From assembly GCA_036867785.1 (NCBI GenBank), contig CP145419.1, forward strand, positions 1 through 64,000: a stretch of 64,000 nucleotides of DNA. The letters are read 5' to 3'. Below the pieces are notes generated by a model. It worked only from the letters and a program-made list of their open reading frames with translations. It ran no database searches and was not told the origin of the DNA. Position numbers and translations under genes: made by a program. Positions 1-64,000 of the stretch are shown piece after piece. Source of the DNA: Plasmodiophora brassicae (Eukaryota). How positions within the stretch are numbered: position 1 is the first letter of the stretch; each line of letters begins with the position of its first letter.

Positions 1-381
1 CCCTAAAAAACCCTAAAACCCTAAGCCCTAAAACCCTAAAAACCCTAAAAACCCTAAAACCCTAAAACCCTAAAAAACCCTAAAACCCTAAAACCCTAAA
101 ACCCTAAAACCCTAAAACCCTAAAACCCTAAAACCCTAAAACCCTAAAACCCTAAAACCCTAAAACCCTAAAACCCTAAAACCCTAAAACCCTAAAACCC
201 TAAAACCCTAAAACCCTAAAACCCTAAAACCCTAAAACCCTAAAACCCTAAAACCCTAAAACCCTAAAACCCTAAAACCCTAAAACCCTAAAAACCCTAA
301 AAAACCCTAAAACCCTAAAACCCTAAAACCCTAAAAAACCCTAAAAACCCTAAAAACCCTAAAAACCCTAAAAAACCCTAA
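1..381. repeat. Telomere, (CCCTAAAA)n = (TTTTAGGG)n, with 5-6 A variants at both edges
   Basis: Continuous CCCTAAAA tandem array from base 1, C-rich strand at the 5' end as expected for a left chromosome end. Confidence 0.98.
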
Positions 382-3300
382 CAGCCGCGTCTCGAATCGA
401 CTGGCAACCGGCACACGTACTGAAAGGGCGTTGGAAATGCTTTCCGATGCACCTGGTTTCTGAGCAATATGGAATTTCCCGAAGGCGAACAGCACGCAGA
501 TGCACAGCAGTTCTCAGCGGACGCCGTCACCGCCGCCGACCAACTGTCAACAGCCGCGTCTCGAATCGACAGGCAACCGGCACACGTACTGAAAGGGCGT
601 TGGAAATGCTGTCCGATGCTCCTGGTTTCAGAGCAATATGGAATTTCCCGACGGCGAACAGCACGCAGATGCACAGCAGTTCTCGGCGGACGCCGTCACC
701 GCCGCCGACCAACTGTCAACAGCCGCGTCTCGAATCGACAGGCAACCGGCACACGTACTGAAAGGGCGTTGGAAATGCTGTCCGATGCTCCTGGTTTCAG
801 AGCAATATGGAATTTCCCGACGGCGAACAGCACGCAGATGCACAGCAGTTCTCGGCGGACGCCGTCACCGCCGCCGACCAACTGTCAACAGCCGCGTCTC
901 GAATCGACAGGCAACCGGCACACGTACTGAAAGGGCGTTGGAAATGCTGTCCGATGCTCCTGGTTTCAGAGCAATATGGAATTTCCCGACGGCGAACAGC
1001 ACGCAGATGCACAGCAGTTCTCGGCGGACGCCGTCACCGCCGCCGACCAACTGTCAACAGCCGCGTCTCGAATCGACAGGCAACCGGCACACGTACTGAA
1101 AGGGCGTTGGAAATGCTGTCCGATGCTCCTGGTTTCAGAGCAATATGGAATTTCCCGACGGCGAACAGCACGCAGATGCACAGCAGTTCTCGGCGGACGC
1201 CGTCACCGCCGCCGACCAACTGTCAACAGCCGCGTCTCGAATCGACAGGCAACCGGCACACGTACTGAAAGGGCGTTGGAAATGCTGTCCGATGCTCCTG
1301 GTTTCAGAGCAATATGGAATTTCCCGACGGCGAACAGCACGCAGATGCACAGCAGTTCTCAGCGGACGCCGTCACCGCCGCCGACCAACTGTCAACAGCC
1401 GCGTCTCGAATCGACAGGCAACCGGCACACGTACTGAAAGGGCGTTGGAAATGCTGTCCGATGCACCTGGTTTCAGAGCAATATGGAATTTCCCGAAGGC
1501 GAACAGCACGCAGATGCACAGCAGTTCTCAGCGGACGCCGTCACCGCCGCCGACCAACTGTCAACAGCCGCGTCTCGAATCGACAGGCAACCGGCACACG
1601 TACTGAAAGGGCAGGAGAAATGCTATCAGCTGCACCTGGTTTCAGAGCAATATGGAATTTCCCGACGGCGAACAGCACGCAGATCCACAGCAGTTCTCAG
1701 CGGACGCCGTCACCGCCGCCGACCAACTGTCAACAGCCGCGTCTCGAATCGACAGGCAACCGGCACACGTACTGAAAGGGCGTTGGAAATGCTGTCCGAT
1801 TCTCCTGGTTTCAGAGCAATATGGAATTTCCCGAAGGCGAACAGCACGCAGATGCACAGCAGTTCTCAGCGGACGCCGTCACCGCCGCCGACCAACTGTC
1901 AACAGCCGCGTCTCGAATCGACAGGCAACCGGCACACGTACTGAAAGGGCGTTGGAAATGCTTTCCGATGCACCTGGTTTCTGAGCAATATGGAATTTCC
2001 CGAAGGCGAACAGCACGCAGATGCACAGCAGTTCTCAGCGGACGCCGTCACCGCCGCCGACCAACTGTCAACAGCCGCGTCTCGAATCGACAGGCAACCG
2101 GCACACGTACTGAAAGGGCAGGAGAAATGCTATCAGCTGCACCTGGTTTCAGAGCAATATGGAATATCCCGACGGCGAACAGCACGCAGATGCACAGCAG
2201 TTCTCAGCGGACGCCGTCACCGCCGCCGACCAACTGTCAACAGCCGCGTCTCGAATCGACAGGCAACCGGCACACGTACTGAAAGGGCGTTGGAAATGCT
2301 GTCCGATGCTCCTGGTTTCAGAGCAATATGGAATTTCCCGACGGCGAACAGCACGCAGATGCACAGCAGTTCTCGGCGGACGCCGTCACCGCCGCCGACC
2401 AACTGTCAACAGCCGCGTCTCGAATCGACAGGCAACCGGCACACGTACTGAAAGGGCGTTGGAAATGCTGTCCGATGCTCCTGGTTTCAGAGCAATATGG
2501 AATTTCCCGACGGCGAACAGCACGCAGATGCACAGCAGTTCTCGGCGGACGCCGTCACCGCCGCCGACCAACTGTCAACAGCCGCGTCTCGAATCGACAG
2601 GCAACCGGCACACGTACTGAAAGGGCGTTGGAAATGCTGTCCGATGCTCCTGGTTTCAGAGCAATATGGAATTTCCCGACGGCGAACAGCACGCAGATGC
2701 ACAGCAGTTCTCAGCGGACGCCGTCACCGCCGCCGACCAACTGTCAACAGCCGCGTCTCGAATCGACAGGCAACCGGCACACGTACTGAAAGGGCAGGAG
2801 AAATGCTATCAGCTGCACCTGGTTTCAGAGCAATATGGAATTTCCCGACGGCGAACAGCACGCAGATGCACAGCAGTTCTCAGCGGACGCCGTCACCGCC
2901 GCCGACCAACTGGCAACAGCCGCGTCTCGAATCGACAGGCAACCGGCACACGTACTGAAAGGGCGTTGGAAATGCTGTCCGATGCACCTGGTTTCAGAGC
3001 AATATGGAATTTCCCGAAGGCGAACAGCACGCAGATGCACAGCAGTTCTCAGCGGACGCCGTCACCGCCGCCGACCAACTGTCAACAGCCGCGTCTCGAA
3101 TCGACAGGCAACCGGCACACGTACTGAAAGGGCAGGAGAAATGCTATCAGCTGCACCTGGTTTCAGAGCAATATGGAATTTCCCGACGGCGAACAGCACG
3201 CAGATGCACAGCAGTTCTCAGCGGACGCCGTCACCGCCGCCGACCAACTGTCAACAGCCGCGTCTCGAATCGACAGGCAACCGGCACACGTACTGAAGGG

Positions 3301-6300
3301 GCAGCAGAAATGCTATCAGCTGCACCTGGTTTCAGAGCAATATGGAATTTCCCGACGGCGAACAGCACGCAGATGCACAGCAGTTCTCAGCGGACGCCGT
3401 CACCGCCGCCGACCAACTGTCAACAGCCGCGTCTCGAATCGACAGGCAACCGGCACACGTACTGAAAGGGCGTTGGAAATGCTGTCCGATGCTCCTGGTT
3501 TCAGAGCAATATGGAATTTCCCGACGGCGAACAGCACGCAGATGCACAGCAGTTCTCAGCGGACGCCGTCACCGCCGCCGACCAACTGTCAACAGCCGCG
3601 TCTCGAATCGACAGGCAACCGGCACACGTACTGAAAGGGCAGGAGAAATGCTATCAGCTGCACCTGGTTTCAGAGCAATATGGAATTTCCCGACGGCGAA
3701 CAGCACGCAGATGCACAGCAGTTCTCAGCGGACGCCGTCACCGCCGCCGACCAACTGTCAACAGCCGCGTCTCGAATCGACAGGCAACCGGCACACGTAC
3801 TGAAAGGGCGTTGGAAATGCTGTCCGATGCTCCTGGTTTCAGAGCAATATGGAATTTCCCGACGGTGAACAGCACGCAGATGCACAGCAGTTCTCAGCGG
3901 ACGCCGTCACCGCCGCCGACCAACTGTCAACAGCCGCGTCTCGAATCGACAGGCAACCGGCACACGTACTGAAAGGGCGTTGGAAATGCTGTCCGATGCT
4001 CCTGGTTTCAGAGCAATATGGAATTTCCCGACGGCGAACAGCACGCAGATGCACAGCAGTTCTCAGCGGACGCCGTCACCGCCGCCGACCAACTGTCAAC
4101 AGCCGCGTCTCGAATCGACAGGCAACCGGCACACGTACTGAAAGGGCGTTGGAAATGCTGTCCGATGCTCCTGGTTTCAGAGCAATATGGAATTTCCCGA
4201 CGGTGAACAGCACGCAGATGCACAGCAGTTCTCAGCGGACGCCGTCACCGCCGCCGACCAACTGTCAACAGCCGCGTCTCGAATCGACAGGCAACCGGCA
4301 CACGTACTGAAAGGGCGTTGGAAATGCTGTCCGATGCTCCTGGGTTCAGAGCAATATGGAATTTCCCGAAGGCGAACAGCACGCAGATGCACAGCAGTTC
4401 TCAGCGGACGCCGTCACCGCCGCCGACCAACTGTCAACAGCCGCGTCTCGAATCGACAGGCAACCGGCACACGTACTGAAAGGGCGTTGGAAATGCTGTC
4501 CGATGCTCCTGGTTTCAGAGCAATATGGAATTTCCCGACGGTGAACAGCACGCAGATGCACAGCAGTTCTCAGCGGACGCCGTCACCGCCGCCGACCAAC
4601 TGTCAACAGCCGCGTCTCGAATCGACAGGCAACCGGCACACGTACTGAAAGGGCGTTGGAAATGCTGTCCGATGCTCCTGGTTTCAGAGCAATATGGAAT
4701 TTCCCGACGGCGAACAGCACGCAGATGCACAGCAGTTCTCAGCGGACGCCGTCACCGCCGCCGACCAACTGTCAACAGCCGCGTCTCGAATCGACAGGCA
4801 ACCGGCACACGTACTGAAAGGGCGTTGGAAATGCTGTCCGATGCTCCTGGTTTCAGAGCAATATGGAATTTCCCGACGGCGAACAGCACGCAGATGCACA
4901 GCAGTTCTCAGCGGACGCCGTCACCGCCGCCGACCAACTGTCAACAGCCGCGTCTCGAATCGACAGGCAACCGGCACACGTACTGAAAGGGCGTTGGAAA
5001 TGCTGTCCGATGCTCCTGGGTTCAGAGCAATATGGAATTTCCCGAAGGCGAACAGCACGCAGATGCACAGCAGTTCTCAGCGGACGCCGTCACCGCCGCC
5101 GACCAACTGTCAACAGCCGCGTCTCGAATCGACAGGCAACCGGCACACGTACTGAAAGGGCGTTGGAAATGCTGTCCGATGCTCCTGGTTTCAGAGCAAT
5201 ATGGAATTTCCCGACGGCGAACAGCACGCAGATGCACAGCAGTTCTCAGCGGACGCCGTCACCGCCGCCGACCAACTGTCAACAGCCGCGTCTCGAATCG
5301 ACAGGCAACCGGCACACGTACTGAAAGGGCGTTGGAAATGCTGTCCGATGCTCCTGGTTTCAGAGCAATATGGAATTTCCCGACGGCGAACAGCACGCAG
5401 ATGCACAGCAGTTCTCAGCGGACGCCGTCACCGCCGCCGACCAACTGTCAACAGCCGCGTCTCGAATCGACAGGCAACCGGCACACGTACTGAAAGGGCG
5501 TTGGAAATGCTGTCCGATGCTCCTGGTTTCAGAGCAATATGGAATTTCCCGACGGTGAACAGCACGCAGATGCACAGCAGTTCTCAGCGGACGCCGTCAC
5601 CGCCGCCGACCAACTGTCAACAGCCGCGTCTCGAATCGACAGGCAACCGGCACACGTACTGAAAGGGCGTTGGAAATGCTGTCCGATGCTCCTGGGTTCA
5701 GAGCAATATGGAATTTCCCGAAGGCGAACAGCACGCAGATGCACAGCAGTTCTCAGCGGACGCCGTCACCGCCGCCGACCAACTGTCAACAGCCGCGTCT
5801 CGAATCGACAGGCAACCGGCACACGTACTGAAAGGGCGTTGGAAATGCTGTCCGATGCTCCTGGTTTCAGAGCAATATGGAATTTCCCGACGGTGAACAG
5901 CACGCAGATGCACAGCAGTTCTCAGCGGACGCCGTCACCGCCGCCGACCAACTGTCAACAGCCGCGTCTCGAATCGACAGGCAACCGGCACACGTACTGA
6001 AAGGGCGTTGGAAATGCTGTCCGATGCTCCTGGTTTCAGAGCAATATGGAATTTCCCGACGGCGAACAGCACGCAGATGCACAGCAGTTCTCAGCGGACG
6101 CCGTCACCGCCGCCGACCAACTGTCAACAGCCGCGTCTCGAATCGACAGGCAACCGGCACACGTACTGAAAGGGCGTTGGAAATGCTGTCCGATGCTCCT
6201 GGTTTCAGAGCAATATGGAATTTCCCGACGGCGAACAGCACGCAGATGCACAGCAGTTCTCAGCGGACGCCGTCACCGCCGCCGACCAACTGTCAACAGC

Positions 6301-9300
6301 CGCGTCTCGAATCGACAGGCAACCGGCACACGTACTGAAAGGGCGTTGGAAATGCTGTCCGATGCTCCTGGTTTCAGAGCAATATGGAATTTCCCGACGG
6401 TGAACAGCACGCAGATGCACAGCAGTTCTCAGCGGACGCCGTCACCGCCGCCGACCAACTGTCAACAGCCGCGTCTCGAATCGACAGGCAACCGGCACAC
6501 GTACTGAAAGGGCGTTGGAAATGCTGTCCGATGCTCCTGGGTTCAGAGCAATATGGAATTTCCCGAAGGCGAACAGCACGCAGATGCACAGCAGTTCTCA
6601 GCGGACGCCGTCACCGCCGCCGACCAACTGTCAACAGCCGCGTCTCGAATCGACAGGCAACCGGCACACGTACTGAAAGGGCGTTGGAAATGCTGTCCGA
6701 TGCTCCTGGTTTCAGAGCAATATGGAATTTCCCGACGGTGAACAGCACGCAGATGCACAGCAGTTCTCAGCGGACGCCGTCACCGCCGCCGACCAACTGT
6801 CAACAGCCGCGTCTCGAATCGACAGGCAACCGGCACACGTACTGAAAGGGCGTTGGAAATGCTGTCCGATGCTCCTGGTTTCAGAGCAATATGGAATTTC
6901 CCGAAGGCGAACAGCACGCAGATGCACAGCAGTTCTCAGCGGACGCCGTCGCCGCCGCCGACCAACTGTCAACAGCCGCGTCTCGAATCGACTGGCAACC
7001 GGCACACGTACTGAAAGGGCGTTGGAAATGCTGTCCGATGCTCCTGGTTTCAGAGCAATATGGAATTTCCCGACGGCGAACAGCACGCAGATGCACAGCA
7101 GTTCTCAGCGGACGCCGTCACCGCCGCCGACCAACTGTCAACAGCCGCGTCTCGAATCGACAGGCAACCGGCACACGTACTGAAAGGGCGTTGGAAATGC
7201 TGTCCGATGCTCCTGGTTTCAGAGCAATATGGAATTTCCCGACGGTGAACAGCACGCAGATGCACAGCAGTTCTCAGCGGACGCCGTCACCGCCGCCGAC
7301 CAACTGTCAACAGCCGCGTCTCGAATCGACAGGCAACCGGCACACGTACTGAAAGGGCGTTGGAAATGCTGTCCGATGCTCCTGGTTTCAGAGCAATATG
7401 GAATTTCCCGACGGTGAACAGCACGCAGATGCACAGCAGTTCTCAGCGGACGCCGTCACCGCCGCCGACCAACTGTCAACAGCCGCGTCTCGAATCGACA
7501 GGCAACCGGCACACGTACTGAAAGGGCGTTGGAAATGCTGTCCGATGCTCCTGGGTTCAGAGCAATATGGAATTTCCCGAAGGCGAACAGCACGCAGATG
7601 CACAGCAGTTCTCAGCGGACGCCGTCACCGCCGCCGACCAACTGTCAACAGCCGCGTCTCGAATCGACAGGCAACCGGCACACGTACTGAAAGGGCGTTG
7701 GAAATGCTGTCCGATGCTCCTGGTTTCAGAGCAATATGGAATTTCCCGACGGTGAACAGCACGCAGATGCACAGCAGTTCTCAGCGGACGCCGTCACCGC
7801 CGCCGACCAACTGTCAACAGCCGCGTCTCGAATCGACAGGCAACCGGCACACGTACTGAAAGGGCGTTGGAAATGCTGTCCGATGCTCCTGGTTTCAGAG
7901 CAATATGGAATTTCCCGAAGGCGAACAGCACGCAGATGCACAGCAGTTCTCAGCGGACGCCGTCGCCGCCGCCGACCAACTGTCAACAGCCGCGTCTCGA
8001 ATCGACTGGCAACCGGCACACGTACTGAAAGGGCGTTGGAAATGCTTTCCGATGCTCCTGGGTTCAGAGCAATATGGAATTTCCCGAAGGCGAACAGCAC
8101 GCAGATGCACAGCAGTTCTCAGCGGACGCCGTCACCGCCGCCGACCAACTGTCAACAGCCGCGTCTCGAATCGACAGGCAACCGGCACACGTACTGAAAG
8201 GGCGTTGGAAATGCTGTCCGATGCTCCTGGGTTCAGAGCAATATGGAATTTCCCGAAGGCGAACAGCACGCAGATGCACAGCAGTTCTCAGCGGACGCCG
8301 TCACCGCCGCCGACCAACTGTCAACAGCCGCGTCTCGAATCGACAGGCAACCGGCACACGTACTGAAAGGGCGTTGGAAATGCTGTCCGATGCTCCTGGT
8401 TTCAGAGCAATATGGAATTTCCCGACGGCGAACAGCACGCAGATGCACAGCAGTTCTCAGCGGACGCCGTCACCGCCGCCGACCAACTGTCAACAGCCGC
8501 GTCTCGAATCGACAGGCAACCGGCACACGTACTGAAAGGGCGTTGGAAATGCTGTCCGATGCTCCTGGTTTCAGAGCCCGGCACACGTACTGAAAGGGCG
8601 TTGGAAATGCTGTCCGATGCACCTGGTTTCAGAGCAATATGGAATTTCCCGAAGGCGAACAGCACGCAGATGCACAGCAGTTCTCAGCGGACGCCGTCGC
8701 CGCCGCCGACCAACTGTCAACAGCCGCGTCTCGAATCGACTGGCAACCGGCACACGTACTGAAAGGGCGTTGGAAATGCTTTCCGATGCACCTGGTTTCT
8801 GAGCAATATGGAATTTCCCGAAGGCGAACAGCACGCAGATGCACAGCAGTTCTCAGCGGACGCCGTCACCGCCGCCGACCAACTGTCAACAGCCGCGTCT
8901 CGAATCGACAGGCAACCGGCACACGTACTGAAAGGGCGTTGGAAATGCTGTCCGATGCTCCTGGTTTCAGAGCAATATGGAATTTCCCGACGGCGAACAG
9001 CACGCAGATGCACAGCAGTTCTCAGCGGACGCCGTCACCGCCGCCGACCAACTGTCAACAGCCGCGTCTCGAATCGACAGGCAACCGGCACACGTACTGA
9101 AAGGGCGTTGGAAATGCTGTCCGATGCTCCTGGTTTCAGAGCAATATGGAATTTCCCGACGGCGAACAGCACGCAGATGCACAGCAGTTCTCAGCGGACG
9201 CCGTCACCGCCGCCGACCAACTGTCAACAGCCGCGTCTCGAATCGACAGGCAACCGGCACACGTACTGAAAGGGCGTTGGAAATGCTGTCCGATGCTCCT

Positions 9301-12300
9301 GGTTTCAGAGCAATATGGAATTTCCCGACGGTGAACAGCACGCAGATGCACAGCAGTTCTCAGCGGACGCCGTCACCGCCGCCGACCAACTGTCAACAGC
9401 CGCGTCTCGAATCGACAGCACACGTACTGAAAGGGCGTTGGAAATGCTGTCCGATGCTCCTGGGTTCAGAGCAATATGGAATTTCCCGACGGCGAACAGC
9501 ACGCAGATGCACAGCAGTTCTCAGCGGACGCCGTCACCGCCGCCGACCAACTGTCAACAGCCGCGTCTCGAATCGACAGGCAACCGGCACACGTACTGAA
9601 AGGGCGTTGGAAATGCTGTCCGATGCTCCTGGTTTCAGAGCAATATGGAATTTCCCGACGGTGAACAGCACGCAGATGCACAGCAGTTCTCAGCGGACGC
9701 CGTCACCGCCGCCGACCAACTGTCAACAGCCGCGTCTCGAATCGACAGGCAACCGGCACACGTACTGAAAGGGCGTTGGAAATGCTGTCCGATGCTCCTG
9801 GGTTCAGAGCAATATGGAATTTCCCGAAGGCGAACAGCACGCAGATGCACAGCAGTTCTCAGCGGACGCCGTCACCGCCGCCGACCAACTGTCAACAGCC
9901 GCGTCTCGAATCGACAGGCAACCGGCACACGTACTGAAAGGGCGTTGGAAATGCTGTCCGATGCTCCTGGTTTCAGAGCAATATGGAATTTCCCGACGGT
10001 GAACAGCACGCAGATGCACAGCAGTTCTCAGCGGACGCCGTCACCGCCGCCGACCAACTGTCAACAGCCGCGTCTCGAATCGACAGGCAACCGGCACACG
10101 TACTGAAAGGGCGTTGGAAATGCTGTCCGATGCTCCTGGTTTCAGAGCAATATGGAATTTCCCGACGGCGAACAGCACGCAGATGCACAGCAGTTCTCAG
10201 CGGACGCCGTCACCGCCGCCGACCAACTGTCAACAGCCGCGTCTCGAATCGACAGGCAACCGGCACACGTACTGAAAGGGCGTTGGAAATGCTGTCCGAT
10301 GCTCCTGGTTTCAGAGCAATATGGAATTTCCCGACGGCGAACAGCACGCAGATGCACAGCAGTTCTCAGCGGACGCCGTCACCGCCGCCGACCAACTGTC
10401 AACAGCCGCGTCTCGAATCGACAGGCAACCGGCACACGTACTGAAAGGGCGTTGGAAATGCTGTCCGATGCTCCTGGTTTCAGAGCAATATGGAATTTCC
10501 CGACGGCGAACAGCACGCAGATGCACAGCAGTTCTCAGCGGACGCCGTCACCGCCGCCGACCAACTGTCAACAGCCGCGTCTCGAATCGACAGGCAACCG
10601 GCACACGTACTGAAAGGGCGTTGGAAATGCTGTCCGATGCTCCTGGTTTCAGAGCAATATGGAATTTCCCGACGGCGAACAGCACGCAGATGCACAGCAG
10701 TTCTCAGCGGACGCCGTCACCGCCGCCGACCAACTGTCAACAGCCGCGTCTCGAATCGACAGGCAACCGGCACACGTACTGAAAGGGCGTTGGAAATGCT
10801 GTCCGATGCTCCTGGTTTCAGAGCAATATGGAATTTCCCGACGGTGAACAGCACGCAGATGCACAGCAGTTCTCAGCGGACGCCGTCACCGCCGCCGACC
10901 AACTGTCAACAGCCGCGTCTCGAATCGACAGGCAACCGGCACACGTACTGAAAGGGCGTTGGAAATGCTGTCCGATGCTCCTGGGTTCAGAGCAATATGG
11001 AATTTCCCGAAGGCGAACAGCACGCAGATGCACAGCAGTTCTCAGCGGACGCCGTCACCGCCGCCGACCAACTGTCAACAGCCGCGTCTCGAATCGACAG
11101 GCAACCGGCACACGTACTGAAAGGGCGTTGGAAATGCTGTCCGATGCTCCTGGGTTCAGAGCAATATGGAATTTCCCGAAGGCGAACAGCACGCAGATGC
11201 ACAGCAGTTCTCAGCGGACGCCGTCACCGCCGCCGACCAACTGTCAACAGCCGCGTCTCGAATCGACAGGCAACCGGCACACGTACTGAAAGGGCGTTGG
11301 AAATGCTGTCCGATGCTCCTGGTTTCAGAGCAATATGGAATTTCCCGACGGTGAACAGCACGCAGATGCACAGCAGTTCTCAGCGGACGCCGTCACCGCC
11401 GCCGACCAACTGTCAACAGCCGCGTCTCGAATCGACAGGCAACCGGCACACGTACTGAAAGGGCGTTGGAAATGCTGTCCGATGCTCCTGGTTTCAGAGC
11501 AATATGGAATTTCCCGACGGCGAACAGCACGCAGATGCACAGCAGTTCTCAGCGGACGCCGTCACCGCCGCCGACCAACTGTCAACAGCCGCGTCTCGAA
11601 TCGACAGGCAACCGGCACACGTACTGAAAGGGCGTTGGAAATGCTGTCCGATGCTCCTGGTTTCAGAGCAATATGGAATTTCCCGACGGCGAACAGCACG
11701 CAGATGCACAGCAGTTCTCAGCGGACGCCGTCACCGCCGCCGACCAACTGTCAACAGCCGCGTCTCGAATCGACAGGCAACCGGCACACGTACTGAAAGG
11801 GCGTTGGAAATGCTGTCCGATGCTCCTGGTTTCAGAGCAATATGGAATTTCCCGACGGTGAACTGCACGCAGATGCACAGCAGTTCTCAGCGGACGCCGT
11901 CACCGCCGCCGACCAACTGTCAACAGCCGCGTCTCGAATCGACAGGCAACCGGCACACGTACTGAAAGGGCGTTGGAAATGCTGTCCGATGCTCCTGGGT
12001 TCAGAGCAATATGGAATTTCCCGAAGGCGAACAGCACGCAGATGCACAGCAGTTCTCAGCGGACGCCGTCACCGCCGCCGACCAACTGTCAACAGCCGCG
12101 TCTCGAATCGACAGGCAACCGGCACACGTACTGAAAGGGCGTTGGAAATGCTGTCCGATGCTCCTGGTTTCAGAGCAATATGGAATTTCCCGAACGCCGT
12201 CACCGCCGCCGACCAACTGTCAACAGCCGCGTCTCGAATCGACAGGCAACCGGCACACGTACTGAAAGGGCGTTGGAAATGCTGTCCGATGCTCCTGGTT

Positions 12301-14939: not shown

Positions 14940-17600
14940 CTGCTCGAAGGCGACACGGAGGCTGCCTCGCAATGGATCTCGGCCATGTTCGTCGTCTTCT
15001 ATGCGCTTCAGCTGGTGCCGACGGCGTCGAAGTCGGCGTTTCATGAAGCGGTTGCTGAAGAAGGACTCCTATCCCATGGACCCGAGCAACTGGCGGGGCA
15101 TCGCGCTCCAGTCGCACCTGCCGTAGACGTACGAGCGCTGCCTCGTCTGGCTGATGCAGTCGCGTGACTGGCTGCGCGTGCACCGCCTCCAGTACATCCA
15201 GAAGGCGTTCGACACGACCGAGCGGGCACTCGTCTACGAGAAGTTGCTGGCGCGCGGCGTCCCCGCTCACGTTGTCGCCGTCGTCCAGTCGCTGTTCGAC
15301 GGATGCACGTTCCAGGTGATGCTGGACGGGCAGCTGTCGAGCGCGATCGACGTGCTGGTCGGCGTCTTCCAGGGCGCCGTGCTGTCCCCGTTCCTGTTCA
15401 ACATTCAGATCGACGACCTGCCGGCCGGGCTGTGCCGCGTCTTCCGGCGCGTTGCACCCTCGCTGTACGGCCAGCCGGTCCCTGCGCAGATGTTCGCCGA
15501 CGACACGTCTCTGTACGCGTTGTCGGACGACGTTGCACAGCGGATGCTGGACTACTGCGAGGAGTACGCCCGCCGGCATCGGTTCGTGTTTAACGCGAGG
15601 AAGTCGCAGGTGACGAGGGACCGCCGCGGCGCGACGTTCACGATCAATGGGGACGAGATCCCAGACGAGGCCGACCTGGCGTCCCCGACCAAGTTCCTGG
15701 GCATGGTGATGCGTGGCGGTGACTTCGCCCACGATGCCCAGCTCCAGGACCGGACGGGGAAGGCCAAGTCGCTGCTGATGGCGATCAGACGAACCGGCGC
15801 CCTGGCGACCAAGCACTTGTCCCTGGCCCGCAAGCGACTGCTCATATTCTGCTGGGTTCGCGCCCGCGCCGAGTACGGCCTCGCCTTCTCGGATCATTCG
15901 AAAGCGTCGCTCGCGGGCATGGACTCGTTGATGAAGTCGTCGGTGGCAATGGCCTTCGGGAACCGCAGCATCGTGCGCGGCAACGTCCTGATGCTGCGTG
16001 CAGCCGGCATCCCGCCGGCGGCCGCGCGTCAGGCGAAGCTGCGCGCGACCCGTCTCTTCAAGCTGGAGTCGTTTGCGGCGTCCGTCCCGACGGACGCGCT
16101 GCTGATCGTCGGCCAGAACGTGCAGTTCCTGCCGTTCACGGCCAAGCGGGCGCTCGCGGATCGACACAGCAACATCGTGAAGATCACGCGCCGGTGCCCG
16201 GTGCTCGCACGCTGTAACCAGCTGTGGGCGGCCGGTGCGCCGGCGCGACGCGAGCGCCAACGGGTGATTGACGCGTGTCGTGATAGGGGCCGACGTGTAC
16301 CGAAGCTGCCGCCGCTGCCGACGAGGGAGGACGCCCTGCTCCAGGCGCTGCATCAGCTGACGTGGGCCGGCGCAAGGGAGAAACTCATGCCGCTGCAAGT
16401 CCAGCCGTACAACCAGCCGCATCCCGTGGCGCGTTGTGCCGGCGAGGACGCGTACGCTGTCCTCTCCTGGATCTGCAACCGGTACCCGGGCTGCCAGATC
16501 CCGTGCCAGGGCTGCGACGGCCGGTACCCGACGTCGCGGTTCCACCTGGCACGTTGCGTCGCGTCCATGCACCTGCTGCACCCGCTGATTGATTGGCGGG
16601 TTCGGCTGATGCATCCTGGGCGGGCGGACTACAAGAACGCGTTCGACTACGTTTCCATCCAGCTGCAAGATTACGATGTACTTCTCCGACAAGAACCCGA
16701 GGCGGCCGACTCGACGACGGCGCCCTGCATCATGCCGACCTGGAAAGATCCGACCTTCCGGTTGTCTGACCGCCAGCGCCGGTGGATGCACGTGCTGGGC
16801 ACGGTGATCCGGGCGACCGTTGCCAAGTGCCTGCACGGGGCGCCGTTGTCGATTTCGGCCCAGGGCGTCGCGGCGCTGGCTGGACCGGCCTCCATCGCGT
16901 TCATCGAGCCGGGTCTACAGGACGAGCCGGACAACCAGGCCGCCGCCGCCGCCGTTGCCGCTGTCGAGGCCGTCATCGAGGACGCCCAGCCCGAGCCAGA
17001 CCGCCGCGTCGACCTGCTGTTCAAGCTAGTGCCGGCCGCGCTACTACTCCTGCTCATCTCGTCCGTCGCCGCCGATCCCGTCCCGCGCCCTGCGCAAGAC
17101 ATCGTCGAGCCGGCCCGCCTGCGGCCGTACCGTCACAGGCACGCGCCCGCCGATGATGATGACGACGACGAACACAGTATTCACCGGGCGTCCGGCAATG
17201 CCAGCCCACGCTGGCACCCGCCATGACCGCCCCGCCGCCCGCGCCGCTCCCCTGAGCGTGCGCCGCCGAGACCGTTCCCCTAGCTCCTCAAGATCAAGCC
17301 GTGCTGCTCCGCGCGGTCGGGCACCCACCTACTACTGTGACGGCACCCCCGATCCGACGCAGCACGGCACCAACTCTTCTAATTTCCACCACGACCAGCG
17401 CCATGCGACACGATCACATCGCGCGCCGAGCACCACACTGCCGCCGCTCGCCATATTTGGCTGAGCGGCGCAGTGCGCACAATCATCAGCTGCTCGGGCG
17501 ACTGGTCCCCGCTGTCGACCCGGCATCGCTTCCGAGCGACGCCGGGCGTCGCCTAGCATTCATTCGCCGCCTGAACAACGGCAAATAAACGAGAATGGCC
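14940..17600 (+). mobile_element. Degenerate, 5'-truncated non-LTR (LINE-like) retrotransposon: RT plus CCHC zinc knuckle
   Basis: ORF 15154-17226 has IQKAFDT, GVFQGAVLSPFLFNIQIDDL, MFADDT, KFLG and CQGC-x8-H-x3-C. The upstream RT region (LLKKDSYPMDPSNWRGIALQSHL*TYE) has a stop at 15124 and frameshifts. Element boundaries are approximate. Confidence 0.85.
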
Positions 17601-19563: not shown

Positions 19564-20856
19564 CCAGGCGTGGCATTCGGTCCTACTTGCGTGCTCCAAT
19601 GCACGACATTCCGTTTTTCTCGTCTGGTCAGAGCCTGGCATGGTCGTATCGCACACGGAGCCAAACCCGGTGGCCCGGAACGACGACTGGCCCCTCGCCC
19701 TTTGTCGACTCCAGCGATTGCTGCCGCTGCGAGCGGGCTGCGGCCAGGGCGACTTGCGGGGCTGGTGTGCACGAGTATAGGCCAGCTGCTGCATTCAGCG
19801 TTATTCGTTGTGGAGATATATGTCGCTGGGGTCGTCCACAGCAGGCGGCGCTAGACGTCGCTGTTCTGCAGGACGACCTGCAGGACAGGGAAGAGACGCA
19901 TTCTATGCTGTTGGCGAGGTCGGCAACACCCTTGGCTGGTCTGCCGATCGCGACACCGATGTACGTCCTGCGACGGGCGCCGCACCCAGCGCCGTCTTCG
20001 GCAGACGGCAGGACGACGTCATGCTGAGTCGGCGGACGCGCGTGTCGACCTAATATTCTTGCACTGGGCGCTTCGGATTGCTGCGATATTTCAGCAAGGA
20101 GGGCGGCGGTTCGTCGACGTCAGGCAGGCATCCACATGTCGAGGCGACGGCCACGTGTGCTTGGTGGTGTTATGGCACGGCCGCGACGGGGGTCGCGCAG
20201 CCGCGCAGTTTGAATAAACGTCCACGGCAACCGACGGCTTCGGCAGTCGGTTAAGATGTCAGGAGACGACACGACGGACGACTATTGTCTCCACAACACG
20301 GAATTAACCGACTGCCGAAGCCGTCGGTTGCCGTGGACGTTTATTCAAACTGCGCGGCTGCGCGACCCCCGTCGCGGCCGTGCCATAACAGTACTGTTAT
20401 GGCACGGCCGCGACGGGGGTCGCGCAGGAGAACTACACGGTACAGGTGGGCTCAACGAATTGTTGGTTAACTTCCACGCTCGGTACCCAACCAAGCCGGG
20501 GCCGAAGTGGCGAAAGCCACCCCGCCGGCCGGCCCGATGACAGGGGACTATACTGTTATGGCACGGCCGCGACGGGGGTCGCGCAGCCGCGCAGTTTGAA
20601 TAAACGTCCACGGCAACCGACGGCTTCGGCAGTCGGTTAATTCCGTGTTGTGGAGACAATAGTCGTCCGTCGTGTCGTCTCCTGACATCTTAACCGACCT
20701 TAACCGTTCGTCACCGTCTGTCGTCGCATCGTCTGTCGCTGTCTGTCGTCACCGTCTGTCGTCGCATCGTCTGTCGCCGTCTGTCGTCACCGTCTGTCGT
20801 CGCATCGTCTCTCGATCGTCTACCTTCGGCCTGTCCGCCCCCTTCGTTCTTCGCTC

Positions 20857-21711
20857 GTGTACGTCTCGATGACGGTCACGCGCTCCGGCTCGACGGGCTC
20901 GACGGCTGACGAAGCCAAGTGCCCAACGACGCCTCCCTCTCCCATCGACCCAACGACCTTGGCCGATGTGGACGCCGCCGATCGCGCCCTCGCGGGTGCC
21001 TTACGGGCCTTCCAGATCCAACAGGATGCGTTCTTCACGGAAATGCGGGCTCGCGCTGAGGAGCAGCTGAAGATCTTTACCAACGCGCTTGCCAGTCCAC
21101 ACTCTACGCCGCCTACGCCCATGACCGATCCCTCGGCAACATCTGCTGAGCCGTCGTCACATGGCAACGATCCTGTTGTCACGACGACTAAGGTGTCGTT
21201 GAGCGAATTTTCCGGCAATTCCGACGACCTGCCGGCGAGCGAGTGGCTGGCGCTATTCGCTAGCATTGCCCGCGTCGATCTCTCGTCGACCCAGCCACTG
21301 TCAGCGGGCGCTCGTGCGCTCCTGGCTAGCTGCCTGAAGGGCGAAGCGCGTTTCGTTTTTCGTCAACTGGATGCGACCGCCTCCCCAGCCGCGTTCGCCG
21401 CGCTGCTCCGGTTTAATTTTCCAGAACCGGACGTCGAGACCCTCGAATCCCGGTTCGATGCCCTTCGTCAAACGGGACCGTTCGATGCTCATCTGCGTCG
21501 GTTCATGTACCTGTACAACGCCGTACAGTCGGCCTCGAAGGGCGAGTACAGTCTCCCGTCAAAGCGCCTGGCGACGAAGTTCCGCAAGTCGCTCGCCCCA
21601 GAGCTTTCGACCGAGCTCTTCAAGCTCAATCCGCCGACATTCGACGCCATGGTCAAAGAGGCAGCGCGCCTGGCCCCCCTCTATGCCCCGGCACACGCGC
21701 TGCCTCTTTGA
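20857..21711 (+). CDS. gag: Gag (C-terminally truncated) of the chromovirus
   Basis: 284-aa ORF between the 5' LTR and pol, with retrotransposon-gag-like motifs FSGNSD..EWL and LRQTGPFDAHLRRF. Confidence 0.75.
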   Translation: MYVSMTVTRSGSTGSTADEAKCPTTPPSPIDPTTLADVDAADRALAGALRAFQIQQDAFFTEMRARAEEQLKIFTNALASPHSTPPTPMTDPSATSAEPSSHGNDPVVTTTKVSLSEFSGNSDDLPASEWLALFASIARVDLSSTQPLSAGARALLASCLKGEARFVFRQLDATASPAAFAALLRFNFPEPDVETLESRFDALRQTGPFDAHLRRFMYLYNAVQSASKGEYSLPSKRLATKFRKSLAPELSTELFKLNPPTFDAMVKEAARLAPLYAPAHALPL

Positions 21712-21730
21712 CCATGGCGTCGAATGTCGG

Positions 21731-59538: not shown

Positions 59539-59990
59539 CACTTCGTATCAGCACCGGCAGACGGCTACCAAGCAATAATTACCATTGGTCTTTCTATACA
59601 ACGCGAAATTGTCATTAAGTACAACTACAGAACTGTCGCCTTTCGAGCCCGCCATTAACCTGTTCGCGCATAGGTCCACGCTCAGGACGACGGCGTCGAC
59701 ACCAGCAGGCAGTCGTTCAACGTACCCGTATGACGTGTTCCGCACGGGGGCACCAGGCGAGGGGCCACGTACGTGGGCGCCAGCGACAGGTCGGCGGGGC
59801 CTGCACCATCTCCCGGGCCGCTTGGCCCGTGCCTGCACGCACCGCAGTCCGCAGCGCCAATAATCAGTCTGCGGCCCCGGCGGCAGAAGAACAGTCGTGT
59901 CCCGGGGCGGTTGTGCGCAGTCTGGCAATGGCCGATCCGTCGGGTTCCCCGCACCATCGTATTTTGGAGCGATCGGGGGCGCAGCGACCG

Positions 59991-61829
59991 ATGCGTTTCT
60001 GGTCACGACAACGTCCCGATCGTCAACCAGCGCCCGCCTCAGACACCGATCATGCGGGACGGGGCGCGGTGCCTGCGCCCGTCGATTTTCGGCTCGTGTT
60101 CGAGGCGCTCCCCGCCCTGTGCCTCGTCCTCGACCCCAACCTGCACATCGTGGCGAGCAGCGGTGCCTACCTGGAGGCCACGATGACGCGCCGGGAAGAC
60201 ATCGCGGGGCGGTACCTGTTCGACGTGTTCCCCGACAACCCCAGTGACCCGTCTGCCACGGGCGTTGCCAACCTGCGCTCGTCGCTGGCGTACGTCCTGA
60301 AGCATCGCACGGCGCATGCGATGGCCGTGCAGAGATATCCAGTCCGGAAGCCCGGCGGCGGGTTCCAGCTCAGGTATTGGAGCCCGGTGAACTCCCCCGT
60401 CCTGGACTCGGACACCGGCGACCTCAAGTACATCATCCATCGCGTCGAAGACGTCACCGAGCTGGTCGCCGCCCGCGACCGTGAGGTCTACCTCGAGGTG
60501 GAGCGGCAGCGACGGGTCGGAGCCGAGGAGACGGTCCGCCGCATGGAGTGGGAGGTGGTGCAGCGCGCCGAGCAGGTCCAGCGGCAGGCACAGGAGCTGG
60601 AGAGGATGAACATGGAGCTGGCCGAGGCGCGCGACAAGGCCATCGAGGCGTCCAACGTCAAGTCGGCGTTCGTCGCGACCATCAGCCACGAGCTGCGCAC
60701 GCCGCTGACTGGCATCCTCGGCTTCACCGACCTGCTCGCCGCGACGCCCCTGTCCGGCGACCAGAACGACCTGCTTGGCCTGATCGGTGATTCAGCGCGC
60801 GTCCTGCTCGCCCTGGTCAACGACATCCTCGACATGTCCAAGCTGGAGGCGGGCAAGGTCGTCCTGGAGCACATCCCGTTCCAGGTGCGCAACGTGGTCC
60901 GGAATTGTGAGCGCCTGCTGCAAGGGCCGGCGAACCTCAAATCCCTCCATCTGCGCGTCGCTGTCGGCGATCGCGTTCCTGCCCTGGTGCGAGGCGACCC
61001 GAGCCGCCTGCGCCAGATTCTGACGAACCTGCTCAGCAACGCCATCAAGTTCACCGATGCCGGCGGCGTGACCCTGAGCGTCGATCGGGCCGACGAACAG
61101 GACCGGGACGACGACGGCGACGACGACGACGTCGTCCGCATACGATTCAAAATCACCGACACCGGGATCGGCATCGCCGACTCGCTCCTGACGCGACTGT
61201 TCGAGCCGTTCTCGCAGGTGGACTCGTCGGACACGAGGAAGTACGGCGGCACGGGCCTCGGCCTGCACATCGTCAGGACGCTAGCGGAGCTGATGGGCGG
61301 GCAGGTCGGCGTCCAGAGCGTCGCCGGCCAGGGATCCGTCTTCTGGGTCGACATCCCGTTCGGCGTCGTCGACCGGGCCGGCGATGCCGGCGGCGTCGCA
61401 GTAGCAGGTGCCGTCGACCAGGTCGCCGGGTCCGGCGCCGGCAAGGCCGCGGAGAAGGTCATCCTCGTGGTCGACGACAACTCGATGATTCGACAGCTGG
61501 TGTGCAGGCAGCTGTCCAAGCTCGGCTACCGGAACGTGCTCGTGGCGGTCAACGGGCAGGACGCCCTGTCCAAGTTCGAGGCATCGGGCCCGGTGGACCT
61601 CATCCTGATGGACGGGCAGATGCCCGAGCTCGATGGCAACGGCGCCACCATGGCCCTGCGCGACATCGAATCGCGATCGCCTGGCTGCGTCGCAGTCCCG
61701 ATCATCGCCATGACGGCCAGCGCCATGCACCGCGACCGCGAGATGTGCCTCCGGGCCGGCATGAACGATGTGCTGACGAAACCGTTCACGCTGACCGAGC
61801 TCGCGTCCACGCTGGAGAAATGGTTATGA
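59991..61829 (+). CDS. Hybrid sensor histidine kinase 2 (tandem paralog), intronless; start uncertain
   Basis: Same motifs: SHELRTPL, NLLSNAIKFT, DTGIGI, GGTGLGL, LMDGQMP, LTKPF. Confidence 0.95.
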   Translation: MRFWSRQRPDRQPAPASDTDHAGRGAVPAPVDFRLVFEALPALCLVLDPNLHIVASSGAYLEATMTRREDIAGRYLFDVFPDNPSDPSATGVANLRSSLAYVLKHRTAHAMAVQRYPVRKPGGGFQLRYWSPVNSPVLDSDTGDLKYIIHRVEDVTELVAARDREVYLEVERQRRVGAEETVRRMEWEVVQRAEQVQRQAQELERMNMELAEARDKAIEASNVKSAFVATISHELRTPLTGILGFTDLLAATPLSGDQNDLLGLIGDSARVLLALVNDILDMSKLEAGKVVLEHIPFQVRNVVRNCERLLQGPANLKSLHLRVAVGDRVPALVRGDPSRLRQILTNLLSNAIKFTDAGGVTLSVDRADEQDRDDDGDDDDVVRIRFKITDTGIGIADSLLTRLFEPFSQVDSSDTRKYGGTGLGLHIVRTLAELMGGQVGVQSVAGQGSVFWVDIPFGVVDRAGDAGGVAVAGAVDQVAGSGAGKAAEKVILVVDDNSMIRQLVCRQLSKLGYRNVLVAVNGQDALSKFEASGPVDLILMDGQMPELDGNGATMALRDIESRSPGCVAVPIIAMTASAMHRDREMCLRAGMNDVLTKPFTLTELASTLEKWL

Positions 61830-62335
61830 CCCAGGCGACGACGACGCCTGTGTCGTGGGTTCCCGTCTTCCCTATTATGTGTATATACGTAGTGTGTGCG
61901 CCTGGCCGGATCGATAGCACCGCGCCAGGTGCGGGCCCTGATAAACAATATACCAACTGTCACCTGTCTCCGCGATACGGCCTCGGGCGCGGCACCGTTG
62001 GCCGCAGCAGGTGCAGCGTCGCGGCTCGGGCCCTTGTGTAGGAATTGCGGTCCTGCAGCGCAATGGGACTGCGCGGGGTTGTCTGACCACCTGTCACCGC
62101 CCGCGACGACGCGTCCCGCATCGGATGTCTGTCTCACCCGCCCATGCAGTGCACTGCCGTCCCTCGCCGTGGAAGTCTCCTTGGCACGGCACCACCGCCG
62201 GCCGTCGGCCGTCCCCTTTGGCGGCAGTGAGTAGTCGTCGCACATTTTGGGTCGGTGGTGAACGCGAGCCGCCCCAATACAGATTGCGCGCCGGCCGCCC
62301 CCCGCCGCGCACATCGTCAGGCGGCGTGCGGCATC

Positions 62336-63649
62336 ATGGCGCAGCTGCACTGGATCGAGGCGGGCCTGCTGCTGTCGGCGTTCCTCGACCTGGTCGAGGA
62401 CCTCGCCTGGGTCACGTCGGGCGTCGCCATCGTCCTCCTGTCCCTGCATCGGTGGCGGGTCTCGCTGACGGCCCTGTATACGTCGCTGGCGGTCGGCGCC
62501 CTGGCCCGCCTCGGCGTCATCGTCGCCATGCCCGGCGTCCGCGTCGCGTTCCTCGTCGTCGCCGTCCTGTTCGCGCTGCTGCACCCGATCGCCGTCTTCC
62601 CCGACCTGTCCGGCCCGTACCTCGTCGGGTGCCGCACCGAGCGCCTGCGCGGCATCGACTGTCGCATCCTGTACCCGACGACGCGTGCGTCGTCGTCGTC
62701 GGGCGCGGACCTCGTCCCGTACCTCGAGTGGCACCGGCACACGCCGGCGGGCATCGCCAAGTACGCCGGCATGCCCGCGTTCCTGTTCGCCCACCTGCCG
62801 TCGTTCCGCCTGCGCGCCTACCGCCATGCGCCCGTCGCCGACGACCAGGCGTCGCACCCGCTGATCGTCTTCTCCCACGGTGCGTAGGGCGGGCGGGGCA
62901 CGCCACCGAACCGATGATTGCTGACGCCCCTCGTGAGGTCAGGCCTGGGCGGCACGTTCGAGATGTACTCGGCGCTGCTCGAGGACTGGGCGTCGCGCGG
63001 CTTCGTCGTCCTGGCCGTCAACCACGGCGACGGCAGCGCGGCCGCGTTCCGCCGCGCCGACTCGGACGACACGGTCCTGTACGTGCCCGTCGACGACGAC
63101 GGGCAGCGACGCGTGCAACTCGAGCACCGCGTCGCCGAGCTGTCCAGGGCGGTGAGCGCGTTCCTCGACGTGGGCCCGCCGTCCATCCCGGTCGACCCGG
63201 CCCGCGTCTTTGTCGTCGGGCACTCGTTCGGCGGCGCCACGGCCGTTGCCGCCGCCGCCGACGACCCGCGCTTCCGGGCCGTCGTCGCCTACGACATGTG
63301 GATGATGCCGGTGCCGCCCGAGACGCTGTCGTCGGCGCGCCTTCGCGACCTGCCCGTCGCGCATTGCATCTCGCGGGCCTGGCGCGAGTCGGCGACGTTC
63401 CCCGCGTTCCTGCAGGCGTGCGGGTCGGCGTCGGGCGGCGTCTGGCTCATCGACCAGGCCGACCACGTGTCGTTCAGCGACGTGTACCTGTACTCGCCGT
63501 TCCTGGCGCGCCTGGCGCTGCGCGGCGCCGACCCGGCGACCCGCCCGATCCTGCAGGCGGCCAGCGCGTTCGCCGCCGACTTCCTGTCGGGAGGGCACGA
63601 CGCGACCCGGGCCCCGTCGCCATACATCCGACGCCTGTCGTCGTCGTGA
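62336..63649 (+). CDS. PAF-acetylhydrolase-like alpha/beta hydrolase with hydrophobic N-terminus; intron about 62880-62942
   Basis: SGPYLVGC, ILYP, PLIVFSH|GLGG, ASRGFVVLAVNHGDGSA, GHSFGGAT, AYDMW, DHVSFSD. Confidence 0.88.
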
Positions 63650-63700
63650 ACCTCGCCTGTACTGTGTGTGTGTGTGTGTGCTGCCGCTGCCGCTGCCTGG

Positions 63701-64000
63701 TCACAGGTCGGCGTCCGGCAGCGCCGGGTGCGACTCCAGCAGGGCGTTGAAGCGCGCCATCAGCGACTGGATGCGCTGTGCGTTCGTCGGCGGGGGCGCA
63801 CCCGGCGCCACGGCCGCCGCTGTCTTCTTCGCCCTCGCCGTCGTCGCGCCCTTCGCCCGGGCGCCCGGCTGTGCCCTGCGCCCGGCCGACGGCGGCGCAC
63901 CCGGCGGCTTCTTCTGCGCCGCCTTCTTCGTCGTCGTCGTCTTCTTCACCTTCGCACCGTCCCGCTGGGTGGCCGCGGATCGTGGCCGCTGGTGCCGCCG
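63701..64000 (-). CDS. C-terminus of a Lys/Ala-rich protein that runs off the window
   Basis: Open frame to the stop at 63701: KKTTTTKKAAQKKP...IQSLMARFNALLESHPALPDADL. Confidence 0.5.
   Translation of the reverse strand, partial: RRHQRPRSAATQRDGAKVKKTTTTKKAAQKKPPGAPPSAGRRAQPGARAKGATTARAKKTAAAVAPGAPPPTNAQRIQSLMARFNALLESHPALPDADL

Follow-up and report, generated by a model that had tools for sequence, protein, structure and literature searches.

The window analysed here, the first 64,000 nucleotides (nt) of contig CP145419.1 of Plasmodiophora brassicae (assembly GCA_036867785.1, positions 1 to 64,000 of the forward strand), carries at 20168 to 24655 a single long terminal repeat (LTR) retrotransposon with an abnormal left end. 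This block of 4,488 bp is best explained, at a probability of about 0.7, as one recent insertion of a defective complementary DNA (cDNA) from a self-priming chromovirus, with a left end produced when reverse transcriptase switched template three times before integration. The segments that form this end meet at the primer-binding site (PBS), at the part of the LTR that is complementary to it, and at the border between the polypurine tract (PPT) and the LTR.

The element presents two regular LTRs, at 20554 to 20687 and 24522 to 24655, which are 134 nt each, identical to one another, and delimited by TG...CA termini (TGTTATGG...CTGACA). The right LTR is plain and the abnormality is confined to the left one, where 386 additional bases upstream of the regular 5′ LTR are composed solely of the element's own parts, with 100% identity throughout. 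The sequence GGTGG adjoins 20168 on the left (20163 to 20167) and 24655 on the right (24656 to 24660), and the empty-site joint described below identifies these two copies as a target-site duplication (TSD); given the base composition of the window, a 5-bp match of this kind has a chance probability of ~0.0012. No further copies or fragments of the chromovirus were found elsewhere in the 64-kb window.

Four segments precede the regular 5′ LTR. Segment A (20168 to 20254, forward strand) consists of LTR nt 1 to 87, is identical to 20554 to 20640 and to 24522 to 24608, and has the 9-mer GTCGGTTAA at its 3′ end. Segment B (20246 to 20393, reverse strand) contains, in inverted orientation, TAC from the end of the PPT, the whole LTR, the dinucleotide TC, and the PBS TTAACCGAC, forming 148-nt arms fully complementary to 20551 to 20698. 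It extends past the inverted LTR and its adjoining GA, as it holds the entire PBS complement and 3 nt of the PPT end. Segment C (20392 to 20427, forward strand), delimited by direct and inverted repeat matches, is TAC followed by LTR nt 1 to 33, and segment D (20423 to 20553, forward strand) duplicates the last 131 nt before the 3′ LTR (24391 to 24521), comprising the chromodomain end of pol and the PPT. Together with the regular LTR that follows it, segment D reproduces the 3′ end of the element exactly (20423 to 20687 equals 24391 to 24655). The PPT region itself, AGGGGACTATAC, is located at 24510 to 24521 on the forward strand, and its 3′-terminal TAC is the one that recurs beside B and C. 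At every segment boundary the identity ends with the next base. Segments A and B overlap by the 9 nt GTCGGTTAA (junction J1), B passes into C through a perfect palindrome centred between 20392 and 20393 on GTAC, with 35-nt arms and a spacer of 0 (J2), and C and D overlap by the 5 nt CGCAG (J3), which gives microhomologies of 9, 2 to 4, and 5 nt, respectively.

The integrity of the block as a single insertion is visible in contigs from public runs. Most of the window is contained in 20 public runs from 12 studies, and the contigs of four of these runs, each from a different study (X1, X2, X4 and X12), were compared with it. Contigs from the identical repeats can be placed at more than one position, and depth over the repeated parts is uninformative. 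One contig each in X12, X4 and X1 joins 20162 straight to 24656, the 5 letters at the joint being assignable to either side; that of X1 is 913 nt long and has both halves adjacent. X2 represents the filled site, with one contig running from the flank into the LTR (19900 to 20197) and another covering 24626 to 24889. Because the empty-site joint occurs in three runs, the whole 4,488-bp block, including its abnormal end, is one polymorphic insertion bounded by the TSD. The 100% identity of the repeated segments is as expected of one recent event.

Other joints and ends in the same contigs relate to different sequences. The X12 joint between 20287 and 24539 on opposite strands, as well as the X4 and X12 joints or letters between 20571–20657 and 20252–20753, were considered as fold-backs and rejected, as they correspond to other copies with divergent LTR variants. 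Other insertion sites of the element family are represented in X2 and X1 by loose ends at 20167/20168 and 20382/20390. The contig pieces listed also include a joint from 20061 to 24682 (side 22 only). In the three empty-site runs (X12, X4 and X1) the contigs break into unlike sequence at 20030/20054 and at 24703, and the strains are also structurally different in the flanks of the insertion site.

The pol frame of the element (21338 to 24508, 1056 residues) presents, in this order, the Pfam domains RVT_1 (residues 143 to 301), RT_RNaseH (391 to 497), Integrase_H2C2 (612 to 666) and rve (688 to 780), followed at the integrase C terminus by Chromo (PF00385, residues 985 to 1025, E = 5.6e-11). 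The E values are 6e-38 for RVT_1, 5e-33 for RT_RNaseH_2, 7e-20 for Integrase_H2C2, 2e-19 for SH3_Tf2-1, 4e-11 for rve and 6e-11, as rounded, for Chromo. Judged by this complement of reverse transcriptase, RNase H, integrase, SH3 domain and chromodomain, together with the TG...CA LTRs and the short TSD, the element is therefore a chromovirus, that is, a Ty3/gypsy element with a chromodomain. The closest named proteins are from Plasmodiophora brassicae itself, at 66% and 70% identity.

Sequence features around the 5′ LTR point to priming of reverse transcription by the element's own RNA. The PBS TTAACCGAC (20690 to 20698, forward strand), which starts 2 nt past the LTR, is the exact complement of GTCGGTTAA at LTR nt 79 to 87 (20632 to 20640, forward strand), and complementarity and RNA folding mark this second 9-mer as the predicted self-primer and predicted 5′ end of the RNA. 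None of 40 control 20-nt windows of the element has a complement of at least 9 nt in the LTR. The trinucleotide TGG of a tRNA-type PBS is absent from the first 28 nt past the 5′ LTR. When folded as RNA from nt 79 through the PBS, the two 9-mers are predicted to pair, enclosing an inner stem-loop, with an energy of −24.8 kcal/mol (z = −3.45) that none of 200 shuffles equals, and the same architecture of the primer:PBS duplex is predicted by RNA folds in five relatives. A TATA-like AATAAA motif (20599 to 20604, forward strand) lies 33 nt upstream of LTR nt 79.

The relatives used for comparison are 80 metagenome loci encoding pol proteins 37 to 53% identical to that of the window. An LTR pair was present in 25 of them, of which 17 were examined and 8 left out (repeats at both contig ends, with an LTR end that could not be placed). 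An exact complement of at least 9 nt between the first 20 nt past the 5′ LTR and the interior of the LTR was found in 8 of 18 elements (7 of the 17 relatives plus the window) compared with 14 of 720 control windows. A scan independent of LTR boundaries, for a TATA motif followed 24 to 38 nt later by the first arm of an inverted pair of at least 9 nt, gave 18 hits in 71 upstream regions compared with 5 and 3 in two control sets of 71, and at least nine different primer sequences were seen among the relatives. The TATA-like motif is positioned at −33 or −34 from the first predicted primer base in seven of eight elements, counting the AATAAA of the window, and reads TATAA in six of the seven relatives. 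This spacing, with the recurring complementarity, puts the predicted start of transcription at LTR nt 79.

As far as these sequences tell, the complementarity between LTR and PBS is conserved and covaries across the relatives, and self-priming of the Tf1 type is supported for the element. An earlier note on this DNA had reported the chromovirus, the five-part 5′ end inside a single GGTGG TSD and the pairing of the PBS with 20632 to 20640, and had called for conserved or covarying complementarity as a check. The domain assignment agrees with the Pfam matches, every segment was recovered in its place at full identity, the pairing holds base for base, and the complementarity recurs in relatives with different sequences. 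Self-priming as such is familiar from Tf1 and Tj1 and from the Tf1/sushi and Tcn1 groups, as outlined in sections of PMC4600332 and PMC6317226.

Two further observations concern the PBS and the spread of the family. Directly 3′ of the PBS TTAACCGAC, at 20699 to 20707, a C followed by TTAACCGT forms a second, partial PBS copy, and a variant LTR in X12 (loose end 20642) has GACGGTTAA in place of GTCGGTTAA, which would pair with this second copy over 8 nt. Judging by these two sequences, the variant and the second copy may reflect covariation within the family or an alternative PBS. Relatives of the chromovirus pol are very common on metagenome contigs of ~5 kb, where at least 579 of at least 595 matched stretches encode one.

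The origin of the abnormal end is indicated by segment B. Its LTR has the PBS at one edge and the last bases of the PPT at the other, an arrangement found in neither integrated LTR: GGTGG stands before the 5′ LTR and after the 3′ LTR, and neither has both PBS and tract. LTRs with both flanks occur in reverse-transcription intermediates and otherwise only in one-LTR circles or tandem arrays. Segment B therefore probably derives from a reverse-transcription intermediate, and we infer that its source was plus-strand strong-stop DNA with retained primer bases at the 5′ end and a copy of the primer at the 3′ end, or else the mirror image, in which the 5′ end belongs to a minus strand that still has the primer attached. 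In the portion of PMC11042837 that deals with Tf1 cDNA, a complete copy of the PBS is retained at a 3′ end by ~50% of molecules, and 4 or more of the final nt of the PPT by ~20%.

The stage at which the error occurred follows from the two LTRs of the insertion. The block begins exactly at LTR nt 1, which is the normal start of plus-strand DNA. In standard reverse transcription the minus strand made first supplies the right LTR, and plus-strand strong-stop DNA serves as the template for the left one. Since only the left LTR is abnormal, the error must have arisen during plus-strand strong-stop synthesis or during the final extension of the minus strand.

The complementarity of LTR nt 79 to 87 with the PBS means that any DNA 3′ end bearing one of the two 9-mers could anneal to the other and be extended. 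Along the simplest path, that of the plus strand, strong-stop DNA would initiate normally at LTR nt 1, quit its template past nt 87, and anneal via GTCGGTTAA to a second strong-stop DNA, at the PBS copy that forms its 3′ terminus. This second molecule would then be copied to its 5′ end, including GTA from three retained tract bases, which would yield segment B. A return to the minus strand at the border between the PPT and the unique 3′ region (U3) of the LTR, through 2 to 3 nt, would produce segment C, and a 164-nt backward slip through CGCAG would produce segment D. A normal run through the tract, the LTR and the PBS would complete a long strong-stop DNA with the PBS as its terminus. This aberrant molecule would be copied by the minus strand once the normal second strand transfer had taken place, leaving the complex structure at the left end only and with a proper terminus for integrase. 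Along the mirror path, the minus strand would jump between template ends in its last extension, one of these ends being a minus-strand 5′ end with retained self-primer; its new TTAACCGAC 3′ end would prime on nt 79 to 87, and the resulting sequence would be identical. We infer the order of the switches and the strand responsible. An intramolecular snap-back of the nascent plus strand, from nt 87 onto a PBS look-alike in U3 at nt 62 to 68, was also considered and rejected, as the two 3′-terminal A's would be mismatched.

Several points weigh against template switching before integration in a self-priming element. The sequence fits the plus-strand and minus-strand paths alike, and an RNA template is indistinguishable by sequence from a DNA template for part of segment B. 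The plus-strand path requires a stop at nt 87 and the minus-strand path a plus strand starting at 24391, both without ready cause. The structure is a single copy, with no second 5′ end of this kind in the window and none established among the 80 related loci. The exact complement of at least 9 nt is absent in 10 of the 17 relatives with defined LTRs, some of which have shorter, mismatched versions, and the transcription start of this element is placed by inference from sequence only. A host tRNA as partner of the PBS would also count on this side, and priming by a half-tRNA is conceivable; ARAGORN detected 0 tRNA genes in the 64-kb window. Among the contig pieces listed, neither J1 to J3 nor the fold-back in gag described below is individually visible, and X2, the sole filled-site run of the four compared, may be the source sample of the window.

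Inverted repeats of at least 40 nt at 90% identity or more were observed in 2 of the 80 relatives, both of them distant and with large repeats upstream of pol. In L021 the repeat (930 to 1186 and 1399 to 1655) could not be related to an LTR. In L060 it involves 1225 to 1555, 1810 to 2141 and 7052 to 7611, and the element appears to have head-to-head LTR-like units on either side. Neither was accepted as a parallel fold-back.

The same structure could in principle have been made after integration, if a plain element inserted first and host replication or repair then built the 386-nt block, by fork stalling with microhomology-mediated template switching or by fold-back repair. The TSD and the empty allele are expected equally under this explanation, the microhomologies of J1 to J3 are as in replication-based rearrangements, and the site is subtelomeric, ~20 kb from the telomere repeat, in a type of region prone to rearrangement. 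Such a history is nevertheless unlikely. It requires an extra, hidden switch between LTRs that are 4 kb apart, raising the total to at least four; the ends of segment B (LTR nt 1 plus 3 nt on one side, the first base of the primer on the other) are natural ends of strong-stop DNA rather than of a chromosomal template; and the same copy contains a further fold-back and deletion in gag. An artefact of assembly or polishing, in which the true locus would carry a plain 5′ LTR, the extra inverted and direct pieces stemming from mis-assembled short repeats, is quite unlikely. The window crosses the telomere repeat and a 12-kb satellite without gaps, suggesting long reads that would easily span 530 nt, the breakpoints fall at biologically meaningful positions (the primer/PBS pair and the PPT/U3 border), and contigs of X2 bridge flank and LTR at both ends of the insertion. 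In favour of an artefact are the repeats of 33 to 148 nt at 100% identity, which short-read graphs cannot resolve, and the lack of a contig bridging J1, J2 or J3 among the pieces listed.

The earlier note had suggested that the element may have integrated with a record of its own priming and of later fold-back template switches. Taken literally, this would mean that an authentic RNA-primed minus-strand intermediate was captured and integrated. The first junction was there interpreted as the product of the LTR segment annealed to the PBS and extended, and GTCGGTTAA followed by GA and the inverted LTR matches this product exactly. The 9-mer, GA and the inverted LTR, read as unique 5′ region, repeat region (R) and U3, likewise correspond to the 5′ end of self-primed minus-strand DNA, and the Tf1 self-primer is reported as not removed (reference 29 as quoted in PMC11042837). 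U3 (LTR nt 1 to 78), however, directly precedes the primer and the block starts at LTR nt 1, whereas an RNA starting near nt 79, as placed by the TATA-like spacing, would carry no U3 at its 5′ end. The junction would therefore not be a natural RNA-primed intermediate. A merely primed molecule would, moreover, lack the complete body and plain 3′ LTR downstream, and capture of such an intermediate is very unlikely. The part of the claim that stands is the enclosure of the whole complex in one TSD, with an empty allele; what does not stand is the error at the priming step, as the plain right LTR moves it to the last steps of reverse transcription. On the sequence, the priming end is better read as a DNA 3′ end that used the 9-nt complementarity of self-priming, being either the nascent plus strand in the role of the primer or a minus strand already extended over a retained primer. 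A history in which several copies inserted into or next to one another and then underwent deletions or recombination between LTRs is highly improbable. The family does have other insertion sites (the loose ends in X2 and X1) and the distant relative L060 carries head-to-head LTR-like pairs, but here no TSD or host DNA separates the pieces, the bases that adjoin the inverted LTR come from the PBS and the PPT instead of target sequence, and all pieces are identical and enclosed by one TSD. Readings as nested insertions or as solo LTRs were rejected for this lack of inner TSDs and host bases.

Besides its left end, the copy is also defective in gag. The gag open frame, taken from the list of open reading frames (20704 to 21711, forward strand, 335 codons from stop to stop), has no Pfam family match, and its C-terminal part is replaced by a second fold-back at 21634 to 21730. 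This fold-back, found as an inverted-repeat match, has 35-nt arms (21634 to 21668 and 21696 to 21730) with a 27-nt spacer and is followed by a jump to the start of the reverse transcriptase, so placed that the remainder of pol at 21731 to 24508 (forward strand) encodes, by Pfam, reverse transcriptase, RNase H, integrase (H2C2, rve and SH3_Tf2-1) and chromodomain. Between gag and reverse transcriptase, no Pfam family match to an aspartic protease was found in either the gag or the pol frame, and this copy lacks both the gag C terminus and the protease. Contigs of other copies in X2, X12 and X4 diverge from the window after 21698/21701 and before 21731. One X2 contig (record 20) is 1,513 nt long, of which 383 nt match the window, leaving at least 1,130 further nt at the place of the gag/protease deletion. 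The extra sequence that other copies have at this position identifies the loss of the protease as a defect of the copy and not of the family; intact relatives of this copy exist, and at least 1.1 kb is missing from it.

The overlap at the gag fold-back, in comparison with the loose contig ends, amounts to 3 to 6 nt (CGC or CGCGCT). It could have formed if the plus strand folded onto itself before skipping forward, which suggests that the gag fold-back and the deletion of at least 1.1 kb belong to the same, single, very error-prone event as the left end. The leader and start of the gag frame also contain a 38-nt tandem repeat of ~3 copies (20708 to 20821, forward strand, by repeat scan). A C-to-T change at 20788 and a joint from 20819 to 20850 in the contigs suggest that the number or sequence of these repeats differs between copies.

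The predicted primer is also part of a second structure. Folding places a hairpin over the predicted U3/R border at 20615 to 20638 (and again at 24583 to 24606, forward strand), in which AACCGAC, the PBS look-alike at LTR nt 62 to 68, pairs with GTCGGTT at nt 79 to 85 around a TTCG loop. Its duplex energy is matched by 12 of 647 control windows. When the strand is folded as DNA, the whole strong-stop molecule favours this local hairpin over pairing of the 3′ PBS with nt 79 to 87. Among 13 predicted self-priming elements tested, the hairpin is strong in five with different sequences, namely, the window and the relatives L060, L063, L069 and L006, in which 0 of 647, 0 of 647, 3 of 648 and 0 of 632 control windows, respectively, are as stable. 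In L071, a near-twin of L069, the corresponding count is 0 of 622. The hairpin is weak in L061 and L068, and it is absent in L004, L013, L015, L017, L044 and L052 of the 13. From these folds it is possible that the hairpin masks any copy of the primer that is joined to U3, both in DNA and at the 3′ end of the RNA, so that only the RNA 5′ end would be free to prime. No description of a U3/primer hairpin was found in the literature searched, which is not proof that none is in print.

The element shares with the Tf1/sushi type (the Tf1, Tj1 and Tcn1 clade) an integrase with a chromodomain and an SH3_Tf2-1 domain, a likeness drawn from Pfam matches, as well as a stem-loop between primer and PBS and the lack of a tRNA-type PBS. 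Its primer:PBS duplex, in contrast, measures 9 nt instead of the 11 nt of Tf1, and its host is a plasmodiophorid and not a fungus, vertebrate or moss. A PBS placed right after the 5′ LTR, with complementarity to a segment inside the LTR, at the predicted 5′ end of the RNA, is another shared trait and is described in the relevant passages of PMC4600332 and PMC6317226.

Complex insertions of LTR retrotransposons that arose by abnormal template switching before integration have been described by Sabot and Schulman in 2007 (PMC1950507) and in a survey of rice (bioRxiv 10.1101/452573), as their summaries state. As in those reports, an aberrant product of reverse transcription would here have been integrated as a unit within one TSD. 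The grass cases, as summarized in the same two sources, are tandems of the form LTR-internal-LTR-internal-LTR with three LTRs and two internal domains, whereas this copy has one internal domain and, at one end, a 386-nt block of pieces from the LTR, PBS, PPT and pol end that are partly inverted. Its breakpoints, unlike those of the tandems, are the primer/PBS pair and the PPT/U3 border. With the primer footprints on Tf1 cDNA, as given in the excerpted results of PMC11042837, segment B has in common that both extensions stand beside an LTR. The Tf1 footprints in those excerpts come from biochemistry on the cDNA of virus-like particles in yeast, whereas the present one is chromosomal and inverted.

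Minus-strand strong-stop DNA of HIV-1 (human immunodeficiency virus type 1) self-primes through the trans-activation response (TAR) hairpin, which has mostly been shown in vitro. In both systems the 3′ end of a strong-stop DNA can anneal to a complement and be extended into a dead-end product, with the difference that the HIV-1 case concerns minus-strand DNA. We know of no integrated genomic fossil of a fold-back of the HIV-1 type. An integrated fold-back of the kind seen here was not found in the literature searched, although this does not prove that none is in print. The fold-back self-priming of HIV-1 minus-strand strong-stop DNA is itself a published topic (e.g., PMC6088434, by its abstract).

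Elements with template switches made before integration and primer footprints at cDNA ends are thus already known, and what is new is a product that is joined at the self-primer/PBS pair and partly inverted. An LTR that has both primer footprints and is joined at this pair would provide independent natural evidence that the 9-nt pair is used as a priming duplex in a distant host lineage, the Rhizaria. Bench demonstrations of self-priming cover very few elements, and complementarity is the ground for assuming it in all others. The copy also adds to the list of aberrant cDNAs that integrase still inserts, and it gives annotators a concrete template-switch reading of inverted LTR fragments at the ends of elements. 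The finding rests on one copy and leaves the understanding of the family unchanged.

A broader interpretation is advanced tentatively and is itself doubtful, namely, that self-priming carries a built-in hazard, of which this copy would be the first natural integrated record: DNA-level re-priming in vivo that yielded an integration-competent cDNA, with the linked U3/primer hairpin acting as a safeguard. If this were true, each plus-strand strong-stop DNA would end in a PBS copy complementary to its own LTR primer, and such ends could re-prime one another or snap back. The U3/primer hairpin, if general, would add a new and testable cis-element to those of self-priming retrotransposons.

At the very beginning of the window lies a telomere-type repeat, AAAACCCT, in ~44 copies (7 to 373), which is followed by a 169-bp satellite of ~70 copies, 95% alike, that extends over ~12 kb (380 to 12193). 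The telomere-type repeat indicates that the window is a chromosome end, and therefore that the chromovirus lies ~20 kb from it. Between the satellite and the chromovirus, a 690-codon frame with an RVT_1 match (15154 to 17226, forward strand, E = 1e-13) belongs to another retroelement. The window also contains a host gene for a SNU114-type GTPase, with its closest named match in Spongospora subterranea at 76%, and a hybrid histidine kinase with PAS, HisKA, HATPase_c and receiver domains (59730 to 61829, forward strand). The latter overlaps the most GC-rich part of the window, at 60001 to 64000, where the GC content is 0.70.

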